Position numbers and translations under genes: made by a program
Notes under the pieces: generated by a model
Database searches by the model: none
Told to the model about the DNA's origin: nothing
The model's input: only the letters and a program-made list of their open reading frames with translations
Assembly: GCA_963744095.1 (NCBI GenBank)
Contig: CAVUSH010000003.1
Location: forward strand, 1,162-65,161
DNA length: 64,000 nt
DNA from: an uncultured Chloroflexia bacterium
GTDB taxonomy: Bacteria > Chloroflexota > Limnocylindria > Limnocylindrales > CSP1-4
Reading direction: 5' to 3'
In this document: positions 52,851 to 64,000 of the stretch, in pieces
How the letters are laid out: each line of letters opens with the position of its first letter
Position numbering within the stretch: position 1 is the first letter of the stretch

Positions 52851-54141
52851 ATGACCAAGAAGATCCTTATCGCGGCCACGACCGCATTGTTCCTGCTGCC
52901 TTCTTTCGCGTCGGCCAACGGGCTCAACCTGAACGGACTTGGGACGCGGGCCCAAGGCATGGGCGGGGCTTTTGTCGAGCATCGCCGACGATTTCAGCGC
53001 CGTTTTCTGGAACCCGGCCGGTGCGGCCGGCTTCAGCAAGGAGATGTTCGGCTTTTACGCGACCGACCTGATTCCGAGGGCGACCTACCGCCGGGACTTC
53101 GCCTTTCCCGAGGACCCCAAAGTCGATGCCAGGACCAAGGATTCGCACTACCTGGGTTTCCTGGCCGGCTACTACAGGCCGGTCAGCTCCAAGATCGTCA
53201 TCGGCCTGGGCATCGGTACGCCCTCTGAGCAGGGGACCCTGTGGAACGGCGCGGATTTCGCCGGCCTCTCGGCCGGGACGGCCTACGATTGGTCGAGCCG
53301 ATTGATCGTTTTCTCCTTTTCGCCGCTCGTCGCGGTCAAGCTCAGCGAGGCGATATCCGTAGGGGTGACGCTGAACGTCAACCTGGGGACGTCCAGCCTC
53401 AAGATGCCGGCCGGGTTTTCGAGCTTGCCGGAAATCGGAGTCTTCGATCCCGTCGACCTCGGACAATACGAAGAGAACATGACCGGCTGGGGGCTGGGGG
53501 CGACTATCGGTGTCCTGGTCAAACCTATCGACAAGCTCAGCATCGGCCTGACCGTGCGGACGCCGTCGGCGATCGCTTTCGACGGCTCGGCCAGAATGTC
53601 CAACCTTTCGCTCTATGATCTTCCGGGGAGCTCGGACCTCGAGCGGAAGATCACTTGGCCGCTGTGGGTCGCGGGCGGCGTGGCGTTCCGGCCTGTCCCG
53701 CTCCTTCTCCTGAGCGCTGACGTTCACTGGACCCAGTGGTCCAAGCGCGACCAGATCAGGACCACGTTCCTTGATCCCGACTGGGTGCCACTGGCTACAG
53801 CCGTCGGCAAGGATGTCCGGGTCCTTGACTGGAAGGACACGACGCAGATCCGGTTCGGCGCGGAGTACATGCTGAACGGGACGACGGCGCTTCGGGCCGG
53901 CTATTACAGCGACCCGGCTCCGGGGCCGGAATCGACGCTCACGGCTCTTCTGCCGACTCACACCTTCAATGCCTTTTCGGTCGGCGCCGGCAAGGCGGTC
54001 GGAGACCTCCAGCTGGATTTCGGCCTGGCCTACCTCAAGGGCAACACGCGTACGGCCGGGCTCGGGCTGCCCAATGCCATGCCCGGGACTCACAGGCTGA
54101 ACATCTTCGTCCCGACCGCTTCGGCCAGCTATAAGTTCTAG
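52851..54141 (+). pseudogene. FadL/OMPP1/TodX-family outer-membrane transporter, one frameshift near codon 42
   Basis: ATG 52851 (MTKKILIAATTALFLLPSFASANGLNLNGLGTRAQGMGGAFV) in ORF 52788..53228. The protein continues as SIADDFSAVFWNPAG... in ORF 52939..54141, which is the +1 frame. The switch falls around 52970-52980, next to a T4 run. Ends ...ASYKF. Confidence 0.75.
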
Positions 54142-54229
54142 CCGTCCGTCCGAACGCAGAGACGCCTCGTCATCCGTAAGGGGGGCGGCTGTCTATTTCG
54201 GAGTGTCGGGCCTGAGGCAAAAGAAAGAA

Positions 54230-54302
54230 TGGCTAGGGACGGAATTGAACCGCCGACGCAAGGATTTTCAGTCCTTCGCTCTACCAACTGAGCTACCTAG
54301 CC
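54230..54302 (-). tRNA. tRNA-Phe (anticodon GAA), copy 1
   Basis: Minus strand GGCTAGGTAGCTCAGTTGGTAGAGCGAAGGACTGAAAATCCTTGCGTCGGCGGTTCAATTCCGTCCCTAGCCA. It folds as a 7/4/5/5 cloverleaf with a CTGAAAA anticodon loop. No encoded CCA. Confidence 0.93.
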
Positions 54303-54415
54303 ATCAGGTCTCCGGCTACCGCCGGAAAGCGCGTTCAGTCTAGCCATTTGGAGCAAAGTCAACGGCCTGAGGCCGATAACCGACCTTTGGTTCAATTGAG
54401 GACGCCGCGGCTTCT

Positions 54416-54443
54416 TTGCTTCTGGGCTTTAGAATGATACAAT
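54416..54443 (+). promoter_or_regulatory. promoter candidate for hicBA copy 1
   Basis: TTGCTT (54416-54421), 16 nt, TACAAT (54438-54443). AAGGAGGG RBS before GTG 54465. Confidence 0.5.
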
Positions 54444-54464
54444 GAACGCAAGGAGGGACGGAAC

Positions 54465-54680
54465 GTGAAATTCAATGTAATCCTGACTCCCGCGGAAGAG
54501 GGCGGGTTCATAGTGACGGTTCCGGCCCTCGACGGTTGTTTTACGGAAGGCGAAACGGAAAAGCAAGCCCTCAAGAACGCCAAGGAAGCCATTGTCTGCT
54601 ATCTCGAAGGCCTCGAGAAGGTCAATCAGATCAGGCTTAAACCCAAGACCGTCATCAAGGAAATCGAGGTCCACGTTTGA
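54465..54680 (+). CDS. hicB: HicB-family antitoxin (short form, no obvious DNA-binding tail)
   Basis: ORF 54465..54680. [43 protein letters not shown] is a typical HicB/UPF0150 N-domain. Confidence 0.85.
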
Positions 54681-54892
54681 GCCGAACGTTTTCCGGGAAA
54701 GAGGTCGTCAAGGCCCTTCGCCGGAGTGGCTATGTCGTCGATCATCAGCGCGGCAGCCACATCTTCTTGCACAACCTGGAAAGGAACGTCTCATTGGTGA
54801 TACCGCTCCATAAAGAGCTCAAGAAGGGAACTCTTCACGCCATCTTGAAAAAAGCCGGCCTGTCCTTGGGGGATCTCAAGGAACTCGTCTAG
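54677..54892 (+). CDS. hicA: HicA-family mRNA interferase toxin
   Basis: ORF 54677..54892. TTG start overlaps the hicB TGA (TTGA). [26 protein letters not shown]...[12 protein letters not shown] is the HicA/YcfA signature. Confidence 0.85.
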
Positions 54893-55008
54893 CCCGGGCG
54901 TCTTCTCTCTCGGCCGGAACCTGGCCCGGCATGGCTTGAATGCGCGGACCCTTTTCGATCTTTTCCTCGAGCTCCGCGAGATCCTGAAGGCGATACGCGA
55001 GCGGCTCG

Positions 55009-56115
55009 CTACTTGACCTTCCAGGTCATGGAATAGCGCTTGACGTACTGGATCCCCTCATCGTCCTGAATGATCGCATAGAGCTTGCCGTCCTTGAAGA
55101 CCAGAGGCTCGCCCGGAATAGGATAATCGCAGAGGTAGCGCCCCTCCGGATCGAAGATGTTGAAAACGTCGACCCCCGCTCCAGGATCTCTCTGCCAGGT
55201 GGAAACGTAGAAGCGGCCGTCCTCGTCGGCATAGACCCACGAGAGGGGCGGCAAGTGCCTAGGGACGGTGATCTCATCCCGGGATTGGATCCCGATCCGC
55301 TTCATCTGGCGGTCGACATCCTGATCGGAAACCGGAACGGGATCGTAAGCCTTGATGATGGTCCGAACTAGGCGGCCCCCGGCGTCAAAAACGCTAAGGC
55401 GGTAATCCCTCTCCCCCGAGGCACATACGATCTCGCGTCCGCGAGAGATATCCCAACGGACGACGCTCGCAAACAACTGGAACTTCGCGGACGGGTCCGG
55501 CATCGGGGAAAAGGCCAGGACCTTCTTCTGCTTGAGACCGGGGCCGCAGAGAACGACTTCATAGCGGGGCTTCTCCTCTTCCATGACCATCCTTGTGCCC
55601 ACGGCATCTCCGCTCTCAAGGTATTTGATAAAAGCCCGCGGCCCGACCGAGTTATCTTGGCTGCGCAGGAAGAGTCCTGCCCGATCGAAAAAGGACAGCC
55701 TACCCATTTCCCCCACAAGGATCTCTCCGGCGGGGGCGAGAGCGACGAAGAACGGGCCCTGGAACTCCCCCGGCCCCTGACCGCGTCTTCCGATCGAACG
55801 AACATGCCGGCCGTCGTTCCCGAAGACATCGACTCGGGGCTTCCGTTGATCGAGCGTGATGATCGATCCTTTATCATCGACCGCGAGACCCCGCAAACTT
55901 ATGAACATGTATTCCTCGGCGCCCGCGGCCGTCCCGATCGTCAGATCCTCCTTGAGTTCCAAAGCCCCTTGCGGATACATGGGAGTTGATGGATTTCGAA
56001 CGACCTCGACGCCGTTCGCGGTCTCGATCGATCCCTTCCAAGCGGACTCTCCCTTACAGCCCCAAACGACGGCTAAGAGCGGCAAAAAGGCTAGAAATAT
56101 CCCTGCTTTTCGCAT
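55009..56115 (-). CDS. 6-bladed beta-propeller (NHL-like) protein, probable lipoprotein
   Basis: ORF 55009..56169. ATG 56113-56115 (MRKAGIFLAFLPLLAVVWGC) after GAGGAGG. GRRGQGPGEF motif. Paralog of 61897..63081. Confidence 0.75.
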   Translation of the reverse strand: MRKAGIFLAFLPLLAVVWGCKGESAWKGSIETANGVEVVRNPSTPMYPQGALELKEDLTIGTAAGAEEYMFISLRGLAVDDKGSIITLDQRKPRVDVFGNDGRHVRSIGRRGQGPGEFQGPFFVALAPAGEILVGEMGRLSFFDRAGLFLRSQDNSVGPRAFIKYLESGDAVGTRMVMEEEKPRYEVVLCGPGLKQKKVLAFSPMPDPSAKFQLFASVVRWDISRGREIVCASGERDYRLSVFDAGGRLVRTIIKAYDPVPVSDQDVDRQMKRIGIQSRDEITVPRHLPPLSWVYADEDGRFYVSTWQRDPGAGVDVFNIFDPEGRYLCDYPIPGEPLVFKDGKLYAIIQDDEGIQYVKRYSMTWKVK

Positions 56116-56256
56116 TTTGCCTCCTCGCTGTATATCCCCTCCCCAAAGAGATATCCCTCGCAACGACAATAGTCAAGGTTCTCAAATCACAAGGGCAGGC
56201 GTGGAAATCCCCTAAGCGATCTTGGCCTTCTTGAGGGAAAACGACAGCTCTCCTAT

Positions 56257-56448
56257 CTTGACCAAATCTTGACCAAACCGACGGAAAAACAGAGACGACC
56301 CGGGACTGGCAGGGACGCGCAGGGAAGCGGATTTGCCCTGTTGGAGCACGTTTATCAGGGATTTCTCGGGGAAGCCGGAAAAGGCGCTTACTGAGTTAAT
56401 CGCCCCAGGGTCAATATTTTACTGATTTAAAAGGGGTTGTCAATCTGA
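56257..56448 (+). repeat. R element, copy a
   Basis: CTTGACCAAATCTTGACCAAACC followed by a conserved non-coding stretch of about 130 nt (...GTTTATCAGGGATTTCTCGGGGA...CTGAGTTAATCGCCC) and a weaker extension to TTGTCAATCTGA. Confidence 0.8.
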
Positions 56449-56624
56449 AGTCGGGTAGTTTGAGGCCTAATATTCTGCCGCTGGGAAAAACACTCTGTTG
56501 GAGACCTTCCTCGAGCTGCGCAAAATCCTGAAGGCAATCCAGAAAGGCTCGGTCTACGAAGACGATAAGGGGTTGCACATTCCGACTTTCGTCGTTATAT
56601 TAATATAAAGAAAGGGACTGCCGG

Positions 56625-57857
56625 ATGAACCGCAGGAGATGGGGGATTCAAATATCTTTGATTTTTATCATGATCTTCCTAATTTTCGCATGCTTACCGA
56701 GACTGAAAAAGATGGGCTCGGCAGCCATTTCGTCCGACGGCGAGGGAGAGCCAGGTCCGGTAAATAGATCCGAATGGTCCTGGTTTGATGGCCAGGGAAG
56801 AACCCGCTCATATGAGCAGACGTTTGATAGAATCCGCGAGATTGTGAGCAGAAATGGTATCCGGGGGCTTTCCCTTGTTCTGAAACAGGCAAAACTCTGG
56901 ACGGATAATCCTGACGTGTTTCATCTTAACCTGGGTTTTGAGTCTTCCCAATCTACGAAGTCGATCGACGCAAAGACCATTTTTCGCGCCGATAGACTTG
57001 GGCAGACAGTTGTTGCCTATCTGGTTCTAAGGCTCGCTAGCGACGGACAATTCGATCTCGACCGATCGTTATCAAGATACGTCGCGAAATCCGCGATGGA
57101 AGGTTCCTTTTATAAAGATATCGCAAACGACCGTCGATGTGCGCAACTGACAGCGAGGCGGATCCTTAGCCACCAAAGCGGGCTGGTCAACTCGCGGTTG
57201 AATCATCCCGATAAGAAATTAACGTTTATCACTTCGCCAGGGAAAGGTTATGCCTATTCCGACGAGGGATTCGGATATCTCCAGTTTATTCTGGAACAGA
57301 CGCTTGGCAGAGGCTTGGATGAGCTCGCTAACGCCTATGTTTTCGGTCCCTTTGCTATGACACAATCCAAGTTCTCCTGCGAGATCCATGCTCCCGCGGA
57401 CTCGGCCTTTCATCCTGGCGATTCGAAATCGGGCCAGCCCTGTGCTTTCTTTACGACCTCCTCGGATTTTACGAATTTCATGTGGCAGATCAGGATGGTG
57501 ATAGGCGAGCTGCCTTATGAAGCCTGGGCTTCATATCTCATCGACCCGACTGTTTCCGTCCGCTCTCCCTCAATACTGACGGAAGGGCCGTACGAGGGCA
57601 AACTGAGCCTGCCCTCAAAGCTGGCTTGGTGTCTGGGGTGGGGTATTTACCGAATTCCCAGGGTCGAAGCTGGGGCCTGCACTTTTATTGGAGAGAAGAA
57701 TCAAGAGATGGAATCTTACGCCACCGTTTTTTATTCTAACCATTCAACGGCAGTGACGATCTTTGCAGTCCCGTCATCCTCAGATTCGGCAATTCCTTTG
57801 ATCTTTAGGGAACTTCTCGGTGATATGGAGAATCCGTTCTCCTGGCTTGGGTTTTAA
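56625..57857 (+). CDS. beta-lactamase/transpeptidase-fold (class C / esterase VIII-like) protein lacking the SxxK motif, membrane-anchored
   Basis: ORF 56625..57857 with visibly lower GC. N-terminal TM IQISLIFIMIFLIFA. The family segment reads FRADRLGQTVVAYLVLRLASDGQFDLD where FRxxSxxKT... is expected. YSD replaces YxN. Confidence 0.65.
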   Translation: MNRRRWGIQISLIFIMIFLIFACLPRLKKMGSAAISSDGEGEPGPVNRSEWSWFDGQGRTRSYEQTFDRIREIVSRNGIRGLSLVLKQAKLWTDNPDVFHLNLGFESSQSTKSIDAKTIFRADRLGQTVVAYLVLRLASDGQFDLDRSLSRYVAKSAMEGSFYKDIANDRRCAQLTARRILSHQSGLVNSRLNHPDKKLTFITSPGKGYAYSDEGFGYLQFILEQTLGRGLDELANAYVFGPFAMTQSKFSCEIHAPADSAFHPGDSKSGQPCAFFTTSSDFTNFMWQIRMVIGELPYEAWASYLIDPTVSVRSPSILTEGPYEGKLSLPSKLAWCLGWGIYRIPRVEAGACTFIGEKNQEMESYATVFYSNHSTAVTIFAVPSSSDSAIPLIFRELLGDMENPFSWLGF

Positions 57858-57875
57858 AGGAAGGCCAGAGATATC

Positions 57876-58024
57876 CTTGACCAAATCTTGACCAAACCAC
57901 GGAAAAACCGAAACGAACAGGGACGGATAGGGACGCTCCAGGAAGCGGTTTTCCCCTGTTGTAGCACGTTTATCAGGGATTTCTCGGGGAGGGCTCAAAA
58001 AGGGCTTACTGAGTGAATCGCCCA
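57876..58024 (+). repeat. R element, copy b
   Basis: Same opening CTTGACCAAATCTTGACCAAACC and conserved body. It has a 1-nt deletion relative to copies a and d. Confidence 0.8.
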
Positions 58025-58093
58025 GTCGGCTTCGGGTTAATTAAGGCGGAACCGCCCTTGTTGAATGGCGGAACTTCTGGCATGAGTTCCGGG

Positions 58094-58315
58094 CCAAAAA
58101 TGTGTGTCCATAAATGTGTCCTAAGTACTTTCTTGATCCGAAGAATTTCTTCGCCAAATTGCGGATTTGCAGCCGTGTCCCGCTCAGGATCTACCCATAT
58201 TTCGACTAAGGCAGAGAACGTGGACACACTTTGGACACACTTTGCCCTCTCCGCGTTCCTGGCTTTTCTCGGTTTTTCCAGGTTTTACGCGGGATTTCTG
58301 GCGAGGGATTATTGA
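58094..58315 (+). repeat. Q element, copy b
   Basis: AAATGTGTGTCC and AAATGTGTCC (58098-58121), a 100-bp core with palindrome CGAAGAATTTCTTCG (58139-58153), then GGACACACTTT twice (58222-58243). Near-identical to 60901-61108. Confidence 0.8.
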
Positions 58316-58325
58316 AGTTCACCCC

Positions 58326-58352
58326 ATATAGAAAAGGAGTTTCTGGAACTCC
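58326..58352 (-). terminator. hairpin plus T-tract downstream of tRNA-Phe copy 2
   Basis: Minus strand GGAGTT-ccaga-AACTCC (58352-58336), then TTTTC. About 20 nt after the tRNA 3' end. Confidence 0.45.
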
Positions 58353-58371
58353 TATGGGAGAAAAAGAAGAA

Positions 58372-58444
58372 TGGCTAGGGACGGAATTGAACCGCCGACG
58401 CAAGGATTTTCAGTCCTTCGCTCTACCAACTGAGCTACCTAGCC
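58372..58444 (-). tRNA. tRNA-Phe (GAA), copy 2, identical to copy 1
   Basis: Same 73-nt sequence as 54230-54302. Confidence 0.93.
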
Positions 58445-60344
58445 ATTGACCGCCCGGCGACCGCCGGAAAGCGCGTTCAGTCTAGCCATTTGGAGCAAAG
58501 TCAACGGCCTGAGGCCGATAACCAACCTTTGGTTCAATTGAGGACGCCGCGGCCTCTTTGCTCCTGGGCTTAGGATGGATACAATGAACGGTCGGAGGGA
58601 CGGAACGTGAAATTCAATGTAATCCCGACTCCCGCGGAAGAGGGCGGGTTCATTGGTTCCACGGTTTGAGCCGGAAAGGGGTGCTGACCTTGCTTTTATC
58701 GCCGCCCAACTCAAGATACTTCTTAAATATTCCCCGGCTTTGTTAGGTTCGTTCCGTCCATTATAAATCCTCCCTAGCTCGAGGTACGGGACGAGCGCGT
58801 TCGGATTGTAAGCGATCGCCTTCTCGAAGTAATCGATCGCCTGTCCGGTCTTTCCTTGCCCGGCATAGAGGAGCCCCAGGTATTGGCAGGACGGGGCTGA
58901 CACCGGTTCGACTTTGACCGTGAGGGAATGCTCCAGGATGGCGGCATCGGCCTGAAGCGGCGCACCAGCCGCGGCGTTCTCCTGGCGAATAGCCTCCAGC
59001 CAGTTCTTCTCGGCCCTCAGATCGTCCCCAAGCTCATGGTAAGCGCATGCCAGGTTGTAGAAGCTCAGTGGATCCCGCGTATTCAGCCCGAGGGCCTTTT
59101 CATACGAGCGTGCGGCATTCTCGTAATCCCCGATCTTAAAGTAGACATTCCCCATTAGGTCGCGCGCTTCCGCGCTATTGTTCTTTAGCGCGATGGTCCT
59201 TGCGCCGCAGGCGAGAGCTTCCGCGAAACGGCCCAGCGTATTGCTGAGCTGGCCGAGATTGTAGTAAATCGTCGGCGAATCGGCATAGATTTCGGTGAAC
59301 TCACGCAGCTGATTGGCGGCGTCGACGAGGAGGCCTAACTGGATGTACTGAAGGGCATATCGGTTAGCCACTGCGGCGACGTCGTTTGGCCGGCCCTCCA
59401 GGACGTAGAGAAACCGCGGCCCTCTGGCCTTCATGAACTCCCGAGAAAATATCGACGCAGACGAACCATCGACGATGCGCCTGCCCGCCCGAGCCTGTTC
59501 CAATAGGAACCGGGCCTGGAAATCCAGCGGGCTCAACTTCACAACCCTCGTCAGCACCTGGGCAGCTTTTTGGAAATCGGACCGTCGCATATCGTCAATG
59601 GCCACATTCTTGAGTGGTTCCGGCCGGAAAGGTTCGGCGGCAACGGCCTCCTCAAGAGAAACCCGGCTTTCTTCCTGCCGGCCGAGTTGCGCCAAGATGA
59701 TAGCCTTGAGCATGAACACATCGGAGGGAATATCCGTGACGATGATCTTGTTCTTTGGTGGCGCACGCCGTCTTTCCCGTTACGGCGGAAATCCCCCCGA
59801 TCTCCCCTTCGGCCGACGAAATATCGCCCTTCGTGCCGCAAAGCCTCAGGGCCTCCGGCCAATGCCCCGCTTCCATTTCCGCGTAGATTGACTGAAGCCA
59901 GCAATCTGTGGCGTCGTAGCTCAGGTCCTGGGCACGAAGAAACCAGGATCTCGCGGCCTGGGAATCTTGCTTTTTAATCGCCTCCAAACCAAGGAGGTAG
60001 GCGGGAAGGCCGGCATTGGGAAATAGGCCCCTTAGGTTGGCGTTGAGCTTCTTGACGTTGGACGAATTCACGATCTTATCCAGCTTTGCTTGGATTGTCC
60101 GAGCGGTCATGAGGGCATCATCGGGCTTCCCTGAGGCATGCTGAATGAAGCTGAGAAGGATCAGCGGATTGAGATCATCGGGAAATAATTCACGCTCCCG
60201 ATTGAGAACGCCCACGGCTTCCTTGTATTTGTTCAACCGGAAGTACGCGAAGGCCTGTTTGACCCGCAGTCCGCGCTCCATCGGGTGCGCCTGAAGGGCT
60301 AGCTCGAATTGCGAAATCGCTTCGTCATACAGCATAGAATCCAT
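58439..60344 (-). pseudogene. TPR-repeat protein, frameshifted and 3'-truncated/fused into repeat DNA
   Basis: ORFs 59652..60344 and 58439..59719 are TPR-like throughout (e.g. YYNLGQL, YFKIGDYENAARSYEKAL, YNLACAYHELGD). The frame switches near 59745-59760. After about 58654 the ORF reads antisense through the hicB stub and spacer and stops inside tRNA copy 2. A signal-peptide-like 45-codon ORF from TTG 60462 lies in another frame. Confidence 0.65.
58606..58653 (+). pseudogene. hicB remnant (first 16 codons only)
   Basis: GTGAAATTCAATGTAATCCCGACTCCCGCGGAAGAGGGCGGGTTCAT matches the hicB 5' end together with the spacer and promoter upstream. Similarity stops at 58653. Confidence 0.8.
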
Positions 60345-60669
60345 GCAGAACTAGAGCTCGTGCGATTCGCGGGTCTTCGCCCCCTAATGGCGGAGGCGCC
60401 ATGAACGCAGGGAGGATAGCCGCGGACAGCAGCAAGAATCGGAGACGAGCGGAAGTGATCAAAGATATCTGCCTTCTGACGCCGGGTTACCGTCGAGATC
60501 TGCGACGAAAACCTGGATGAGCTTTAGGATCACGGTGACTTCGTATTGGAGAGGCTTTATAGCCTGCTCGCTGCGCGGCTGACCTTTGCCCGCCTTGCTG
60601 AGCTCACACCAATAAAGTAGCGCGATTCTGGTGAGATTTCAATACAACAGACTGCTGCCGTCCTTTAAC

Positions 60670-60735
60670 CTTGACCAACTATTGACCAACCAACGGAAGA
60701 ACCGAGACGACCCGGGACGGCCGGGCACGCTCCGG
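60670..60735 (+). repeat. R element, copy c (partial, diverged)
   Basis: CTTGACCAACTATTGACCAACCAACGGAAGAACCGAGACGACCCGGGACGG... keeps the 11-bp phased direct repeat, then loses similarity. Confidence 0.65.
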
Positions 60736-60900
60736 TAAGCTGATTTCGTCTGTAGAATGGGCATTTCCGGGGTTTTTATGGAGAGGGCGAGAGAGTCGCC
60801 AACCGAGCTACAGCTCCGGTCGCTTCGAAAAGCGAGAGTGGGCGGTCGCTATCGAATAGCAGACCACGGACCAAGGGAAACTGGGGGCGAATTAGCGGGT

Positions 60901-61108
60901 CCAAAAATGTGTCCTAAGTACTTTCTTGATCCGAAGAATTTCTTCGCCAAATTGCGGATTTGCAGCCCTGTCCCGCTCAGGATCTACCCATATTTCGACT
61001 AAGGTAGAGAAAGTGGACACACTTTGGACACACTTTGCCCGCTTCGCATTCCTGGATTTTCCCGGTTTTTCCAGATTTTACGCGGTGTTTCGGGCGGGGG
61101 ATTATTGA
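60901..61108 (+). repeat. Q element, copy c
   Basis: One left-arm AAATGTGTCC (60905-60914), the same core, then GGACACACTTT twice (61014-61035). Confidence 0.8.
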
Positions 61109-61163
61109 CACTTTCCCCATACGGAAGAGGGCGGATCAGAGCTCATCTGGGGGAAAAAAAGAA

Positions 61164-61236
61164 TGGCTAGGGACGGAATTGAACCGTCGACGCAAGGATT
61201 TTCAGTCCTTCGCTCTACCTACTGAGCTACCTAGCC
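61164..61236 (-). tRNA. tRNA-Phe (GAA), copy 3, two substitutions
   Basis: Differs from copies 1 and 2 at U17->A (D-loop) and G50->A, which turns a G-U pair with U64 into A-U. Confidence 0.9.
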
Positions 61237-61351
61237 ATTGACCGCCCGGCGACCGCCGGAAAGCGCGTTCAGTTATGGTCATTCGGGGGGTAAAGTCAAC
61301 GGCCTGAGGCCGATAACCGACCTTTGGTTCAATTAGGTCGCCGCGGCTTCT

Positions 61352-61379
61352 TTGCTCCTGGGATTTAGAATGATACAAT
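61352..61379 (+). promoter_or_regulatory. promoter candidate for hicBA copy 2
   Basis: TTGCTC (61352-61357), 16 nt, TACAAT (61374-61379). Confidence 0.5.
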
Positions 61380-61400
61380 AAACGCTAGGAGGGACGGAAC

Positions 61401-61616
61401 GTGAAATTCAATGTAATCCTGACTCCCGCGGAAGAGGGCGGGTTCATAGTGACGGTTCCGGCCCTCGACGGTTGTTTTACGGAAGGCGAAACGGAAAAGC
61501 AAGCCCTCAAGAACGCCAAGGAAGCCATTGTCTGCTATCTCGAAGGCCTCGAGAAGATCAACCAGATCAAGTCCAGACCCAAGGCCGTCATCAAGGAAAT
61601 CGAGGTCCACGTTTGA
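61401..61616 (+). CDS. hicB: HicB-family antitoxin, copy 2
   Basis: ORF 61401..61616. Differs from copy 1 only near the C-terminus ([16 protein letters not shown] versus [16 protein letters not shown]). Confidence 0.85.
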
Positions 61617-61828
61617 GCCGAACGTTTTCCGGGAAAGAGGTCGTCAAGGCCCTTCGCCGGAGTGGCTATGTCGTCGATCATCAGCGCGGCAGCCACATCT
61701 TCTTGCACAACCTGGAAAAGAACATCTCATTGGTGATGCCGCTCCATAAAGAGCTCAAGAAGGGAACTCTTCACGCCATCTTGAAAAAGGCCGGCCTGTC
61801 CTTGGGGGATCTCAAGGAACTCGTCTAG
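61613..61828 (+). CDS. hicA: HicA-family toxin, copy 2
   Basis: TTG 61613 overlaps the hicB TGA. It lies inside ORF track entry 61472..61828. [10 protein letters not shown] versus [10 protein letters not shown] in copy 1. Confidence 0.85.
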
Positions 61829-61896
61829 CCCGGGCGTCTTCTCTCTCGGCCGGAACCTGGCCTGCCTGGAAATCAATAGGTCGAGTTATTCCGTTC

Positions 61897-63081
61897 CTAC
61901 TTTTCGACGATCTTGTACTCGTAGAAGCAGACGCCGCGGTAGCTGTCGAGCAGGAACAGCCGATCCTGGTGGACCCAGATCTTGTCGACGAAGTGGGTCA
62001 GGGGGATCTCGCCAAGAAGTATGCCGTCCGATCTGAAAATCTCCAGTTTGTACATGTCCGTCTTCCTAAGATCAGTGTGCCCGACGAGTTTTCGGGTCTC
62101 CGCCCCACCGACCTGGCCGCTATACATGACGATGACCTCCTCGTCCTTCCTAATCTGCCGGTCGCAGGTCACCACCCAGATCCGGCCAGAGCCGTCGGCA
62201 TCGAGGCTTCTCGCCACGGAATTGAATTTGGGATAGAAGGTCCGAGCCCCCTCACGCCGTCCCTTCTCCACCATTTTAGCCGGATAATTCAGTTCACGGT
62301 CGGCTCTCCACAACAACTGTCCGTCCGGCGAAAATTTCTCGATGCGATTCTGAAGGAGAAAGCAGAGGTAAATGTTGTCTTCACGGTCAACTGTGAAATC
62401 CCAAGAGTTACCCACGCTGTTCGCGAGCTCGTCTCCAAAGTCGAAGGGGTCCCCGAATTCTTGCTGCGGTGCGAGATCCGGCCCCAGTATTTTGACCAGC
62501 TTAGGCCCACGCCTATTGCCCTCGACGGCCATCTTCCCGGAACGCAAGAGCCGCATCTGGTAAATATCCAGGTTTATGACCGGGATGGTCTTAAGGACCT
62601 CGCCTTTTGATGCGAACACCTGGATCCGCCGCTGCCGGTTATCCAGGACGTGGAAGCGGCCTTCGCCGTCGAAGTCGATCGAGCGCGTGGACATGAACTC
62701 CCCGGGCCCCTGCCCTTTTCGGCCGACGGTCCTGAGGTAGCGGCCTTCCGGATCGAACACCTGGATGCGCTGATTCTGGCTGTCGGCGATGTAGATATTC
62801 CCGGCGGTGTCCACGGCCAAGTCTGCGGGTGAGTTGAAGGCCAGGTTCTCATCATCCGAATCCACGTCGCCGATTGTCCTCACCAGCTCGATAGAGACCT
62901 TCGGGGCCGTCCCCCAGACCCCACCCTTAGCGTTGTGAACGATCCGGACGCCGTTCTCGGCTACGATTGTCTGAGCAGAGATGCCCCGGGAAAGCAAGGG
63001 CCCAACGATAAGCGAAACTAATAGGAGGAGGAACGAGATTAATGGGAGTGCTGCAAGGTGGTTCTTTGTCCATACCGTCAT
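61897..63081 (-). CDS. 6-bladed beta-propeller (NHL-like) protein, signal-anchored
   Basis: ORF 61897..63081 with GGGAGGG RBS. GRKGQGPGEF, NIYIADSQNQRIQVF and RRIQVF blade motifs. Confidence 0.8.
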   Translation of the reverse strand: MTVWTKNHLAALPLISFLLLLVSLIVGPLLSRGISAQTIVAENGVRIVHNAKGGVWGTAPKVSIELVRTIGDVDSDDENLAFNSPADLAVDTAGNIYIADSQNQRIQVFDPEGRYLRTVGRKGQGPGEFMSTRSIDFDGEGRFHVLDNRQRRIQVFASKGEVLKTIPVINLDIYQMRLLRSGKMAVEGNRRGPKLVKILGPDLAPQQEFGDPFDFGDELANSVGNSWDFTVDREDNIYLCFLLQNRIEKFSPDGQLLWRADRELNYPAKMVEKGRREGARTFYPKFNSVARSLDADGSGRIWVVTCDRQIRKDEEVIVMYSGQVGGAETRKLVGHTDLRKTDMYKLEIFRSDGILLGEIPLTHFVDKIWVHQDRLFLLDSYRGVCFYEYKIVEK

Positions 63082-63153
63082 GGATATGTCCCTCCCTTTC
63101 GAACAGCACTCAACGTTGCCCTTATAGTGAAGGCTTGCTTTTTTATGCGCCCA

Positions 63154-63182
63154 TTATTAGGGCGGGACCGTCGAGGCGTCAA
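63154..63182 (-). promoter_or_regulatory. promoter candidate for the second beta-propeller gene
   Basis: Minus strand TTGACG (63177-63182), 17 nt, TAATAA (63154-63159). Confidence 0.45.
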
Positions 63183-63207
63183 GCGGTCGGTTTTGGGTCC
63201 CAAAGAC

Positions 63208-63399
63208 CTTGACCAAATCTTGACCAAACCAACGGAAAAACGGAGACGGTCCGGGACGGCCCAGGACGCTCCGGGAGGCGGTTTTGCCCTGTTGGATCAC
63301 GTTTATCAGGGATTTCTCGGGGAAGCCGAAAAAGGCGCTTGCTGAGTTAATCGCCCGTCAGTCAGTATTTTACAGATTCGAAAAGGATTGTCGATCTGA
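63208..63399 (+). repeat. R element, copy d
   Basis: Closest to copy a, including the extension GTCAGTATTTTACAGATT..TTGTCGATCTGA. Confidence 0.8.
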
Positions 63400-63454
63400 T
63401 CTCAGGGGCGGATTGACGGCCCTCGACTCCTGTGCGAATATAGGCCCAGTACCC

Positions 63455-63670
63455 ATGCGGACCGATACTCTGGACCCGGAGATCGTCGACGACGAGATGG
63501 CGGCCGTTCTCCGGGGCAAGACGCCCGTCGAGCGGCTTCGCGTCGCCTTCGGACTGTGGACTTCCACCAAGAATATGCTCGAAAGGCTCCTCAGGTCCCA
63601 GCATCCCGATTGGGATGACCGTGCCATCAAGGCGGAGGCCGCAAGAAGGATGTCTCATGGAACAGGATGA
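63455..63670 (+). CDS. small helical hypothetical protein (candidate antitoxin/partner of the downstream nucleotidyltransferase)
   Basis: ATG 63455 inside ORF 63284..63670 (MRTDTLDPEIVDDEMAAVLRGKTPVERLRVAFGLW...). The upstream part of the ORF is R-element DNA that carries stops in copies a and b. TTGACG-17-GAATAT at 63413-63441. No clear SD. Confidence 0.5.
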   Translation: MRTDTLDPEIVDDEMAAVLRGKTPVERLRVAFGLWTSTKNMLERLLRSQHPDWDDRAIKAEAARRMSHGTG

Positions 63671-64000
63671 GCTGCTGAGACACGCCGCACGATGCTTTGA
63701 CGAGAGCGGCGTCCGCTATTTCGTGACGGGCGCCGTCGCGGCTATCGCCTATGGCGAGCCGAGGCTGACGAACGATATCGATATCGTGGCCGATCTCGAG
63801 GAAGACAAAATTCCCCGGCTCAAGAGCTGTTATCCGGCAGATGAGTTCTATTTCGACGAGGAGTCCGCCAGGCGGGCTGTCCGGGCCAGGTCCCAATTCA
63901 ACATCATCCATCCCGGCTCCGGTCTGAAGATCGATATCATGATCTCCCAAGGCAACGAGTTCGATCAGAGCCGTTTCCGGCGGGCCCGGCGGCTCAAGCC
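63657..64000 (+). CDS. Pol-beta-superfamily nucleotidyltransferase-fold protein (AbiEii/MNT/DUF6036-like), 5' part, runs off window
   Basis: Not in the ORF track because it is open-ended. ATG 63657 overlaps the upstream ORF by 14 nt. MEQDELLRHAARCFDESGVRYFVTGAVAAIAYGEPRLTNDIDIVADL contains a G[AS]x9-12 DxD NTase motif. Confidence 0.65.
   Translation, partial: MEQDELLRHAARCFDESGVRYFVTGAVAAIAYGEPRLTNDIDIVADLEEDKIPRLKSCYPADEFYFDEESARRAVRARSQFNIIHPGSGLKIDIMISQGNEFDQSRFRRARRLK

Follow-up and report, generated by a model that had tools for sequence, protein, structure and literature searches.

The repeated 149-nt unit at a tRNA-Phe locus of an uncultured Chloroflexia bacterium is probably an attachment arm of elements targeting the 5' part of tRNA genes

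A stretch of 64,000 nucleotides (nt) from an uncultured Chloroflexia bacterium (GenBank assembly GCA_963744095.1, contig CAVUSH010000003.1, positions 1,162 to 65,161 of the forward strand; hereafter the window) carries near its right end four copies of a conspicuous repeat, R, each of which opens with two 9-mers placed one helical turn apart. The question raised by this locus is what such a repeat does there. An earlier note, made from the letters of the window, took R in the first place for tandem boxes of an OmpR/PhoB-type response regulator, and named as alternatives a structured RNA and a part of the attachment (att) arm of a mobile element. Our analysis supports the last of these proposals and speaks against the regulator boxes and the RNA: R is probably an attL/attP-type attachment arm of tyrosine-integrase elements whose insertion sites lie in the 5' part of tRNA genes.

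A sequence check together with a profile search recovered four R copies on one strand, at the starts that the earlier note had given. According to the profile built on the clear copies, R is a unit of 149 nt, and on the minus strand the copies occupy positions 56257-56405 (copy a), 57876-58023 (copy b), 60670-60817 (copy c) and 63208-63356 (copy d). Copy c had been regarded as a 66-nt partial, but the profile search revealed a diverged unit of full length that runs to 60817. The left edge is sharp at CTTGACC in all four copies, and copies a and d have about 45 nt extra in common, reaching about 56455 and 63406, respectively. The 11-bp-spaced 9-mer pair does open every copy, giving four pairs. 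Within the window TTGACCAAA occurs 14 times at no more than one mismatch, compared with 4.6 ± 1.9 times in shuffled sequences, none of 100 of which reached 14; eight of the 14 matches belong to the four pairs. R is also non-coding, as had been proposed, since no frame is conserved and a single stop-free frame passes through the 9-mer pair. The origin of R as a remnant of an integrase C-terminus was considered and rejected, because the frame is not conserved and varies from copy to copy.

The anatomy of R becomes readable on the minus strand, the strand that also carries the tRNA-Phe genes of the window. The earlier note had overlooked that R carries at its 3' end (...ACTGAGTTAATCGCCC) the start of a tRNA gene in reverse complement. 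Read on the minus strand, R consists of the first 14-19 nt of a tRNA gene (the stub), a conserved body of about 110 nt, and GGTTTGGTCAAGATTTGGTCAAG. Copies a, b and d start with GGGCGATT(A/C)ACTCAG, which corresponds to nt 1-15 of a tRNA-Val(CAC) gene of Aminicenantes (locus L018; loci in other contigs are designated by such numbers). The stub of copy a (56391-56405, GGGCGATTAACTCAG) is identical to these 15 nt, position 56405 being tRNA +1. The tRNA-Val-type stub of copy b (GGGCGATTCACTCAG, 58009-58023) has one substitution and no promoter in front of it, whereas the stub of the diverged copy c (GGAGCTGTAGCTCGGTTGG, 60799-60817) resembles tRNA-Ala(GGC) and that of copy d (63342-63356) is again of tRNA-Val. 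At the opposite end of copy a, the repeat at 56257-56279 (CTTGACCAAATCTTGACCAAACC) comprises two 9-mers 11 bp apart, which are candidate arm-type integrase sites; in copy c it reads TTGACCAAC-TA-TTGACCAAC. The 11-bp pair is adjoined by three GRGACK units (in copy a GAGACG, GGGACT and GGGACG on the minus strand, 56292-56317, phased by 10 bp at 56292, 56302 and 56312). They are conserved in the family consensus as well and represent candidate sites for accessory proteins.

What copies a and d share beyond the unit is a minus-strand promoter of the sigma-70 type. Its hexamers are TTGACA-16-TAAAAT at 56416-56443, reading into copy a and towards a gene for an NHL protein, and TCGACA-16-TAAAAT at 63367-63394, upstream of copy d. 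In a consensus scan these were the two best sigma-70 matches in 54100-64000. Moreover, about 90 nt of this region are homologous to sequence found upstream of intact tRNA-Val genes elsewhere (L063, L076 and L018), and we refer to the region as the displaced tRNA-Val-type promoter. No terminator was predicted inside R. TTGACC was also tried as a -35 hexamer and discarded, there being no -10 hexamer at 16-18 nt and no plus-strand promoter at this place in the consensus scan.

An exact-pattern scan with a 22-mer of R yielded 19 copies, in contigs of Aminicenantes metagenome-assembled genomes and in three linked AT-rich phage-like contigs, and a metagenome scan added 58 more loci. A profile search over the collected loci gave 94 matches in 77 loci, with one orientation within each locus. 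Besides the four of the window, about 90 copies are present in Aminicenantes-type contigs. The nucleotide identity of R across related loci is about 65-90%, and its stubs are of four kinds, namely tRNA-Val(CAC), tRNA-Ala(CGC), tRNA-Ala(GGC) and tRNA-Phe(GAA). The 22-mer is absent from IMG/VR. Nine further matches outside Aminicenantes were not accepted as members of the family, their context being unrelated and devoid of a nearby tRNA or integrase gene. In several unrelated bacteria (L002, L012, L007, L010, L017 and L022) we observed TTGACCAAA-like units phased by 11 bp in sets of three, not two; neither a tRNA nor an integrase gene was present within the 1.8-8 kb examined around these loci.

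Four observations locate the recombination junction. Firstly, outside the window 16 distinct full copies have a same-strand tRNA gene downstream in the DNA examined, and in all 16 the stub has the identity of that tRNA, the matching intact gene lying co-oriented at a distance of 1.2-6 kb. Secondly, each of the simplest islands lies between direct repeats whose end falls within the 5' part of the tRNA; these are 17 nt long in L025 (CGTGGGCGGTTAGCTCA) and L011, and about 140 nt long, with the promoter included, in L004. Thirdly, homologous upstream flanks join either an intact tRNA or a stub followed by the R body, the two forms diverging after tRNA nt 14-19. Such pairs are the Ala flank in L074 and L075, the Phe flank in L060 and the window, and the Val promoter in the window as compared with L063, L076 and L018. 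Finally, the type of the stub varies independently of that of the body: one cluster of bodies, 38 copies in size, is combined with 18 Val, 16 Ala(CGC), 3 Ala(GGC) and 1 Phe stubs, and a second one with 7 Phe and 2 Ala(GGC) stubs. These results indicate that the junction lies in the D-arm of the tRNA and that the R body and the repeat belong to the element side. In addition, positions 56405 (tRNA +1) and 63207 (the edge of the repeat) are exact breakpoints of metagenome contigs from related populations, which run on into flanks seen in L008; this fits R being a shared recombination module. Sediments, soils and sludges are the habitats of the population to which the window belongs. R is also far better conserved than its cargo, as copies a and d are 85% identical in nucleotide sequence, whereas the two NHL proteins encoded next to them are about 33% identical over about 130-156 amino acids (aa).

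An integrase gene or a fragment of one adjoins R in two other contigs, and a third contig has an integrase gene next to an intact tRNA gene. In the phage-like L019, a gene for a 367-aa tyrosine integrase (PF00589 and Int_N) ends 144 nt before a tRNA-Val stub, and beyond the stub follow the R body, the repeat and then phage tail genes. A second R copy is situated at the start of the same contig, its stub being preceded by a tRNA-Val-type promoter. An arrangement of this kind would be expected of tandem prophages, with attL and, in the interior, an attP-like junction. The attP of L019 contains one further 10-mer with one mismatch, about 70 nt across the core, where about 0.1 would be expected by chance in the 2 kb scanned. 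In L008 a C-terminal integrase fragment ends 37 nt before R, and in L040 the gene for a 480-aa integrase with an N-terminal helix-turn-helix directly adjoins an intact tRNA-Ala(GGC) on the 5' side. The integrases of these three loci are mutually related. No relative of the L019 integrase was detected in IMG/VR, and it is at most 27% identical to the Pseudomonas phage integrases in INPHARED, a comparison uninformative on the type of att site. Among the relatives of the L008 fragment, the best 120 of 146 matches measure 63-186 aa and several are located on contigs longer than 10 kb. Integrase decay seems to be common in these genomes, a bias of the search being possible. These relatives provided no further link to R: three of their neighbourhoods were inspected and R was present in none, the three cases being a split gene, a truncation by IS21 and a classical 3' tRNA site (the gene beside a tRNA 3' fragment).

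The attachment-arm reading suggests the following course of integration. Strand exchange would take place in the D-arm, around tRNA nt 14-20, and the island would therefore come to lie upstream of the tRNA. One arm of the element would bring a replacement promoter and a tRNA 5' end, so that the tRNA would stay intact. The original promoter and the first ~15 tRNA nt would be displaced to the far end of the island and fused there to the other arm of the element, thereby giving R. The TTGACCAAA pair probably binds the N-terminal, arm-binding domain of the integrase, and accessory or bending proteins are the probable ligands of the GRGACK triplet and of the A/T-rich stretches. As a side effect, the displaced tRNA promoter would point through R into the first cargo gene and could drive its transcription; a regulatory side effect of R on the cargo is plausible. 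To judge from the sequences, the small islands could at present be mobilised in trans or could be relics. In the window, the four copies would bound several small islands that lack an integrase and are piled up upstream of tRNA-Phe; in front of each R would stand the tRNA-proximal arm of the element that follows upstream.

Several observations weigh against this explanation. No integrase gene was found in the 64-kb window, and most of the related islands (1.2-4.5 kb) are devoid of one too. The tRNA-proximal arm of most related islands contains no further TTGACCAAA site. The conservation of the repeat is not judgeable from the collected copies, because nearly all of them were gathered by means of the 22-mer itself and only about five, found by the profile and carrying 1-3 changes, are independent. 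The agreement of stub and tRNA seen in related loci fails in the window, where the stubs are of the Val, Val, Ala(GGC)-like and Val types and the nearby tRNAs are all Phe. The window also has three whole tRNA-Phe genes and no Phe fragments, which the simple model does not predict. Neither an excised circle nor an empty-site read was seen among the low-depth contigs. Furthermore, R is inverted relative to the nearby tRNA-Ala(GGC) in L040 and L009. Given the mismatch between the stubs and tRNA-Phe, the copies of the window can only be internal or nested junctions, and, with the integrase also lacking, the array looks like a stack of old, nested insertions. As to the inverted loci, the R stub in L040 (386-4920) and L009 is of tRNA-Ala(GGC) and lies opposite to tRNA-Ala(GGC), so that an inversion between att sites is possible.

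The position of R relative to the cargo bears on the alternatives. The earlier observation that R precedes minus-strand cargo genes turned out to be general: in 24 of 28 islands the first open reading frame (ORF) past R runs in the same direction as R and begins 70-220 nt downstream of it. In most islands this ORF encodes a very divergent member of the NHL/DUF5128 family of 6-bladed beta-propellers, with 23-33% identity between most islands and a higher one in two close pairs. This suggests that the putative exported NHL proteins turn over or diversify rapidly at tRNA loci. In other cases R is followed by a TPR gene, by genes for 650-aa proteins or by phage tail genes, and a hydrolase gene on the opposite strand is flanked by R. 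An unlikely but consequential reading of these islands is that R and its cargo make up integrase-less cassettes, mostly with divergent NHL genes, which an integrase acting in trans inserts serially into tRNA D-arms and which are expressed from the captured tRNA promoter through R. If true, this would amount to an integron-like way of working, in which tRNA genes serve as the platform and the cassettes recombine at R.

We consider it quite improbable that R is primarily a cis-regulatory module, in which tandem 11-bp boxes of the OmpR/PhoB type or of another regulator control the downstream, usually NHL, cargo. The spacing of one helical turn would suit such boxes, as would the co-oriented first ORF at 70-220 nt, its belonging to the NHL family in most islands and the displaced tRNA promoter reading through R with no terminator predicted on the way. 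However, relative to the only strong promoter the repeats lie about 130 nt downstream and not upstream of its -35 hexamer, and no response-regulator gene is linked to R. Moreover, R is followed by cargo as unrelated as the TPR gene, the genes for 650-aa proteins and the phage tail genes, and it also flanks the opposite-strand hydrolase gene. A stub matching the local tRNA would be unexpected for a regulon box, and in other contigs R adjoins an integrase gene and phage tail genes. Of the arguments for OmpR/PhoB-type boxes only the 11-bp phasing fits, as the position relative to the promoter and the linkage to a regulator both fail.

It is also very improbable that R is the end of a transposon or of a miniature inverted-repeat transposable element (MITE), or that it was multiplied by segmental duplication through homologous recombination and without the help of a site-specific recombinase. 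In favour of this, R occurs in several sharply bounded copies, and some islands (L085 and L073) are flanked by nearly identical repeats of about 100 nt, which would be able to recombine homologously. At the same time, R has no inverted copy at the other end of the island, no terminal inverted repeats and no linked transposase, its orientation relative to the tRNAs is constant (the inversions of L040 and L009 set aside), and four different tRNA genes have their junctions with it at the same nucleotides. A MITE or insertion-sequence end in particular was rejected on account of the missing inverted partner and the constant orientation within each locus.

We find it hardly credible that R is a structured non-coding RNA, either a small RNA led by the tRNA stub or a leader or riboswitch of the cargo. 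A near-consensus promoter does lie about 10 nt upstream of the stub in copies a and d, and in the single metatranscriptome run available one contig overlaps a copy of the R family. However, copy b and many other copies are without a promoter, and the RNA contig has a depth of 2.6, differs from the window by about 12% mismatches and could stem from DNA carry-over. The checks against Rfam, by consensus folding and for covariation all spoke against an RNA. Searching Rfam with the whole window at the gathering score and with 56150-58400 at E ≤ 1 matched only the three tRNA-Phe genes, and RNAalifold gave no consensus fold for 52 distinct copies on either strand. The CAGGG/CCCTG pairing that had been pointed out is reduced, by explicit count, to invariant G-C triplets, the variable positions changing without compensation. 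An integron attC site was rejected as well, since RNAalifold showed no hairpin potential, R lies 5' of the cargo and a tRNA stub is present; no integron integrase turned up in the R loci, although no search was aimed at one.

With R taken as an attachment arm, at least four small islands can be marked off around tRNA-Phe in the window, whose genome is of the Aminicenantes type. Copy 1 of tRNA-Phe(GAA) (54229-54303, minus strand) adjoins the conserved flank genes, fadL-like and clpB, and forms the proximal end of the stack. The same synteny occurs in L004, where clpB, the fadL-like gene and tRNA-Phe flank a single clean island with a Phe stub. Copies 2 (58371-58445) and 3 (61163-61237, with two substitutions) are complete minus-strand genes inside the stack. 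Read along the minus strand, the order starts with copy d of R, an NHL gene (61897-63081), hicAB, tRNA-Phe copy 3 and a repeat termed D6', and goes on with copy c of R, a TPR-repeat gene (58439-60344), a hicB fragment, tRNA-Phe copy 2 and D6. It is continued by copy b of R, the gene for a serine hydrolase of the beta-lactamase fold (56625-57857, plus strand, between copies a and b), copy a of R, an NHL gene of the 6-bladed beta-propeller type (55009-56115), hicAB, tRNA-Phe copy 1, the fadL-like gene and clpB. The two NHL genes and the TPR gene are on the minus strand and constitute the cargo downstream of copies d, a and c, respectively; copy b has D6 and tRNA-Phe copy 2 on its minus-strand 5' side. 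The TPR gene consists of two overlapping ORFs (58439-59719 and 59652-60344) and is probably a frameshifted pseudogene. In the region of this gene, metagenome contigs lack one nucleotide of the window at 59766 and another at 60351.

Other repeats accompany the stack. Each of the three tRNA-Phe copies is duplicated together with about 200 nt of upstream DNA (54229-54511, 58371-58653 and 61163-61447), which holds a TTGACT-17-TAGACT promoter and the start of hicB; at copy 2 hicB is cut after about 60 nt. The two hicBA pairs are 96% identical, compared with the amino acid identity of about 33% for the neighbouring NHL genes. The repeat D6 (58091-58337 and 60884-61130, 88% identical with no gaps) follows tRNA-Phe copies 2 and 3, starting about 10 nt beyond their 3' ends, but does not follow copy 1. 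It contains a tandem pair of AAAGTGTGTCC on the minus strand, and at a distance of about 110 nt from it GGACACA..GGACACA as an inverted pair; the order tRNA-Phe, D6, R is also encountered in L030 and L078. D6 may be the arm of a second element of the 3'-end type or another protein-binding module. Its homology to R was considered and dropped, the best local alignment covering only 18 nt.

Just 3' of the NHL genes lies a conserved segment of about 47 nt that we call module 2 (54948-54994 and 56492-56538; CTCGAGCTCCGCGAGATCCTGAAGGCGAT, with the plus strand reading ..LFLELREILKAI..), which occurs also in L015, L018, L028, L032, L063, L070 and L083. In eight copies from seven other loci module 2 is fused to a shortened R that retains the repeat and only about 25-60 nt, or about 20-40 nt as measured by the profile. 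Module 2 may represent the opposite arm of the NHL-type islands or the remnant of a gene. Upstream of copy d on the minus strand, positions 63456-64000 contain a small antitoxin-like ORF and a nucleotidyltransferase-like ORF, the latter present in L001 too. Toxin-antitoxin modules are recurrent cargo of the islands, in the form of HicAB, a HigA-like gene and the antitoxin/nucleotidyltransferase-like pair.

Among known systems, phage lambda offers a model for the architecture of R. The attP and attL sites used by lambda Int have arms with arm-type sites (P'1-P'3), flanked by binding sites for Xis, IHF and Fis. By analogy, the tandem direct repeats of R, about one helical turn apart and 100-150 bp from the crossover core, could be the counterpart of the arm-type sites, and the second phased repeat set and the A/T-rich stretches between the arm repeats and the core could be that of the accessory sites. 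In the phage-like contig the site likewise lies just beyond the 3' end of int. The two systems differ in that the core of R is in the 5' part of a tRNA gene, the sequences are unrelated, the other arm of R has a single candidate site and R is known from sequence alone.

With regard to the place of insertion, the account in 10.1101/2020.11.02.365908, which cites Williams 2002, names three classical sublocations of integration in tRNA genes: the anticodon loop, the T-loop and the 3' end. The same study describes islands of Klebsiella pneumoniae at tRNA-Arg (arg2) that use the 5' acceptor half along with D-stem and D-loop, lie upstream of the gene and are called a novel preference (10.1101/2020.11.02.365908). 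These islands agree with the R islands in sublocation and polarity and are the closest match. However, they belong to another phylum, whereas the R family has four target tRNAs (Val, Ala-CGC, Ala-GGC and Phe), a conserved arm of about 110 nt and mostly integrase-less islands of 1-4 kb. The islands of dusA-associated integrases insert in the 5' end of their target gene and supply it with a new 5' end, beside which the integrase gene is located (PMC4482086). They share with the R islands the insertion at the 5' end and its replacement, but their target is protein-coding and both the integrase family and the att sequences are different. The stacking and decay at tRNA genes are reminiscent of the Tycheposons in tRNA genes of Prochlorococcus, where successive integrations push older elements outward and the arrays leave partial tRNAs, degraded integrases and cargo-only remnants (10.1101/2020.12.28.424599). 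Tycheposons belong to another lineage, have other integrases and are not reported to possess a conserved 150-nt arm.

Thus, the R islands most likely combine a rare insertion place with an ordinary kind of element, and the conspicuous repeat would find its explanation as the footprint of site-specific integration. Within the literature searched, the 5'/D-arm sublocation is reported only for the tRNA-Arg of Klebsiella (10.1101/2020.11.02.365908), and the R family would be a widespread example of it, outside the classical three, in uncultured bacteria. The 149-nt arm could serve as a simple marker for such islands, which island finders based on tRNA 3' fragments may miss. What is peculiar to the family is the long conserved arm and the preponderance of integrase-less islands with NHL genes, mini-islands whose abundance is unusual.

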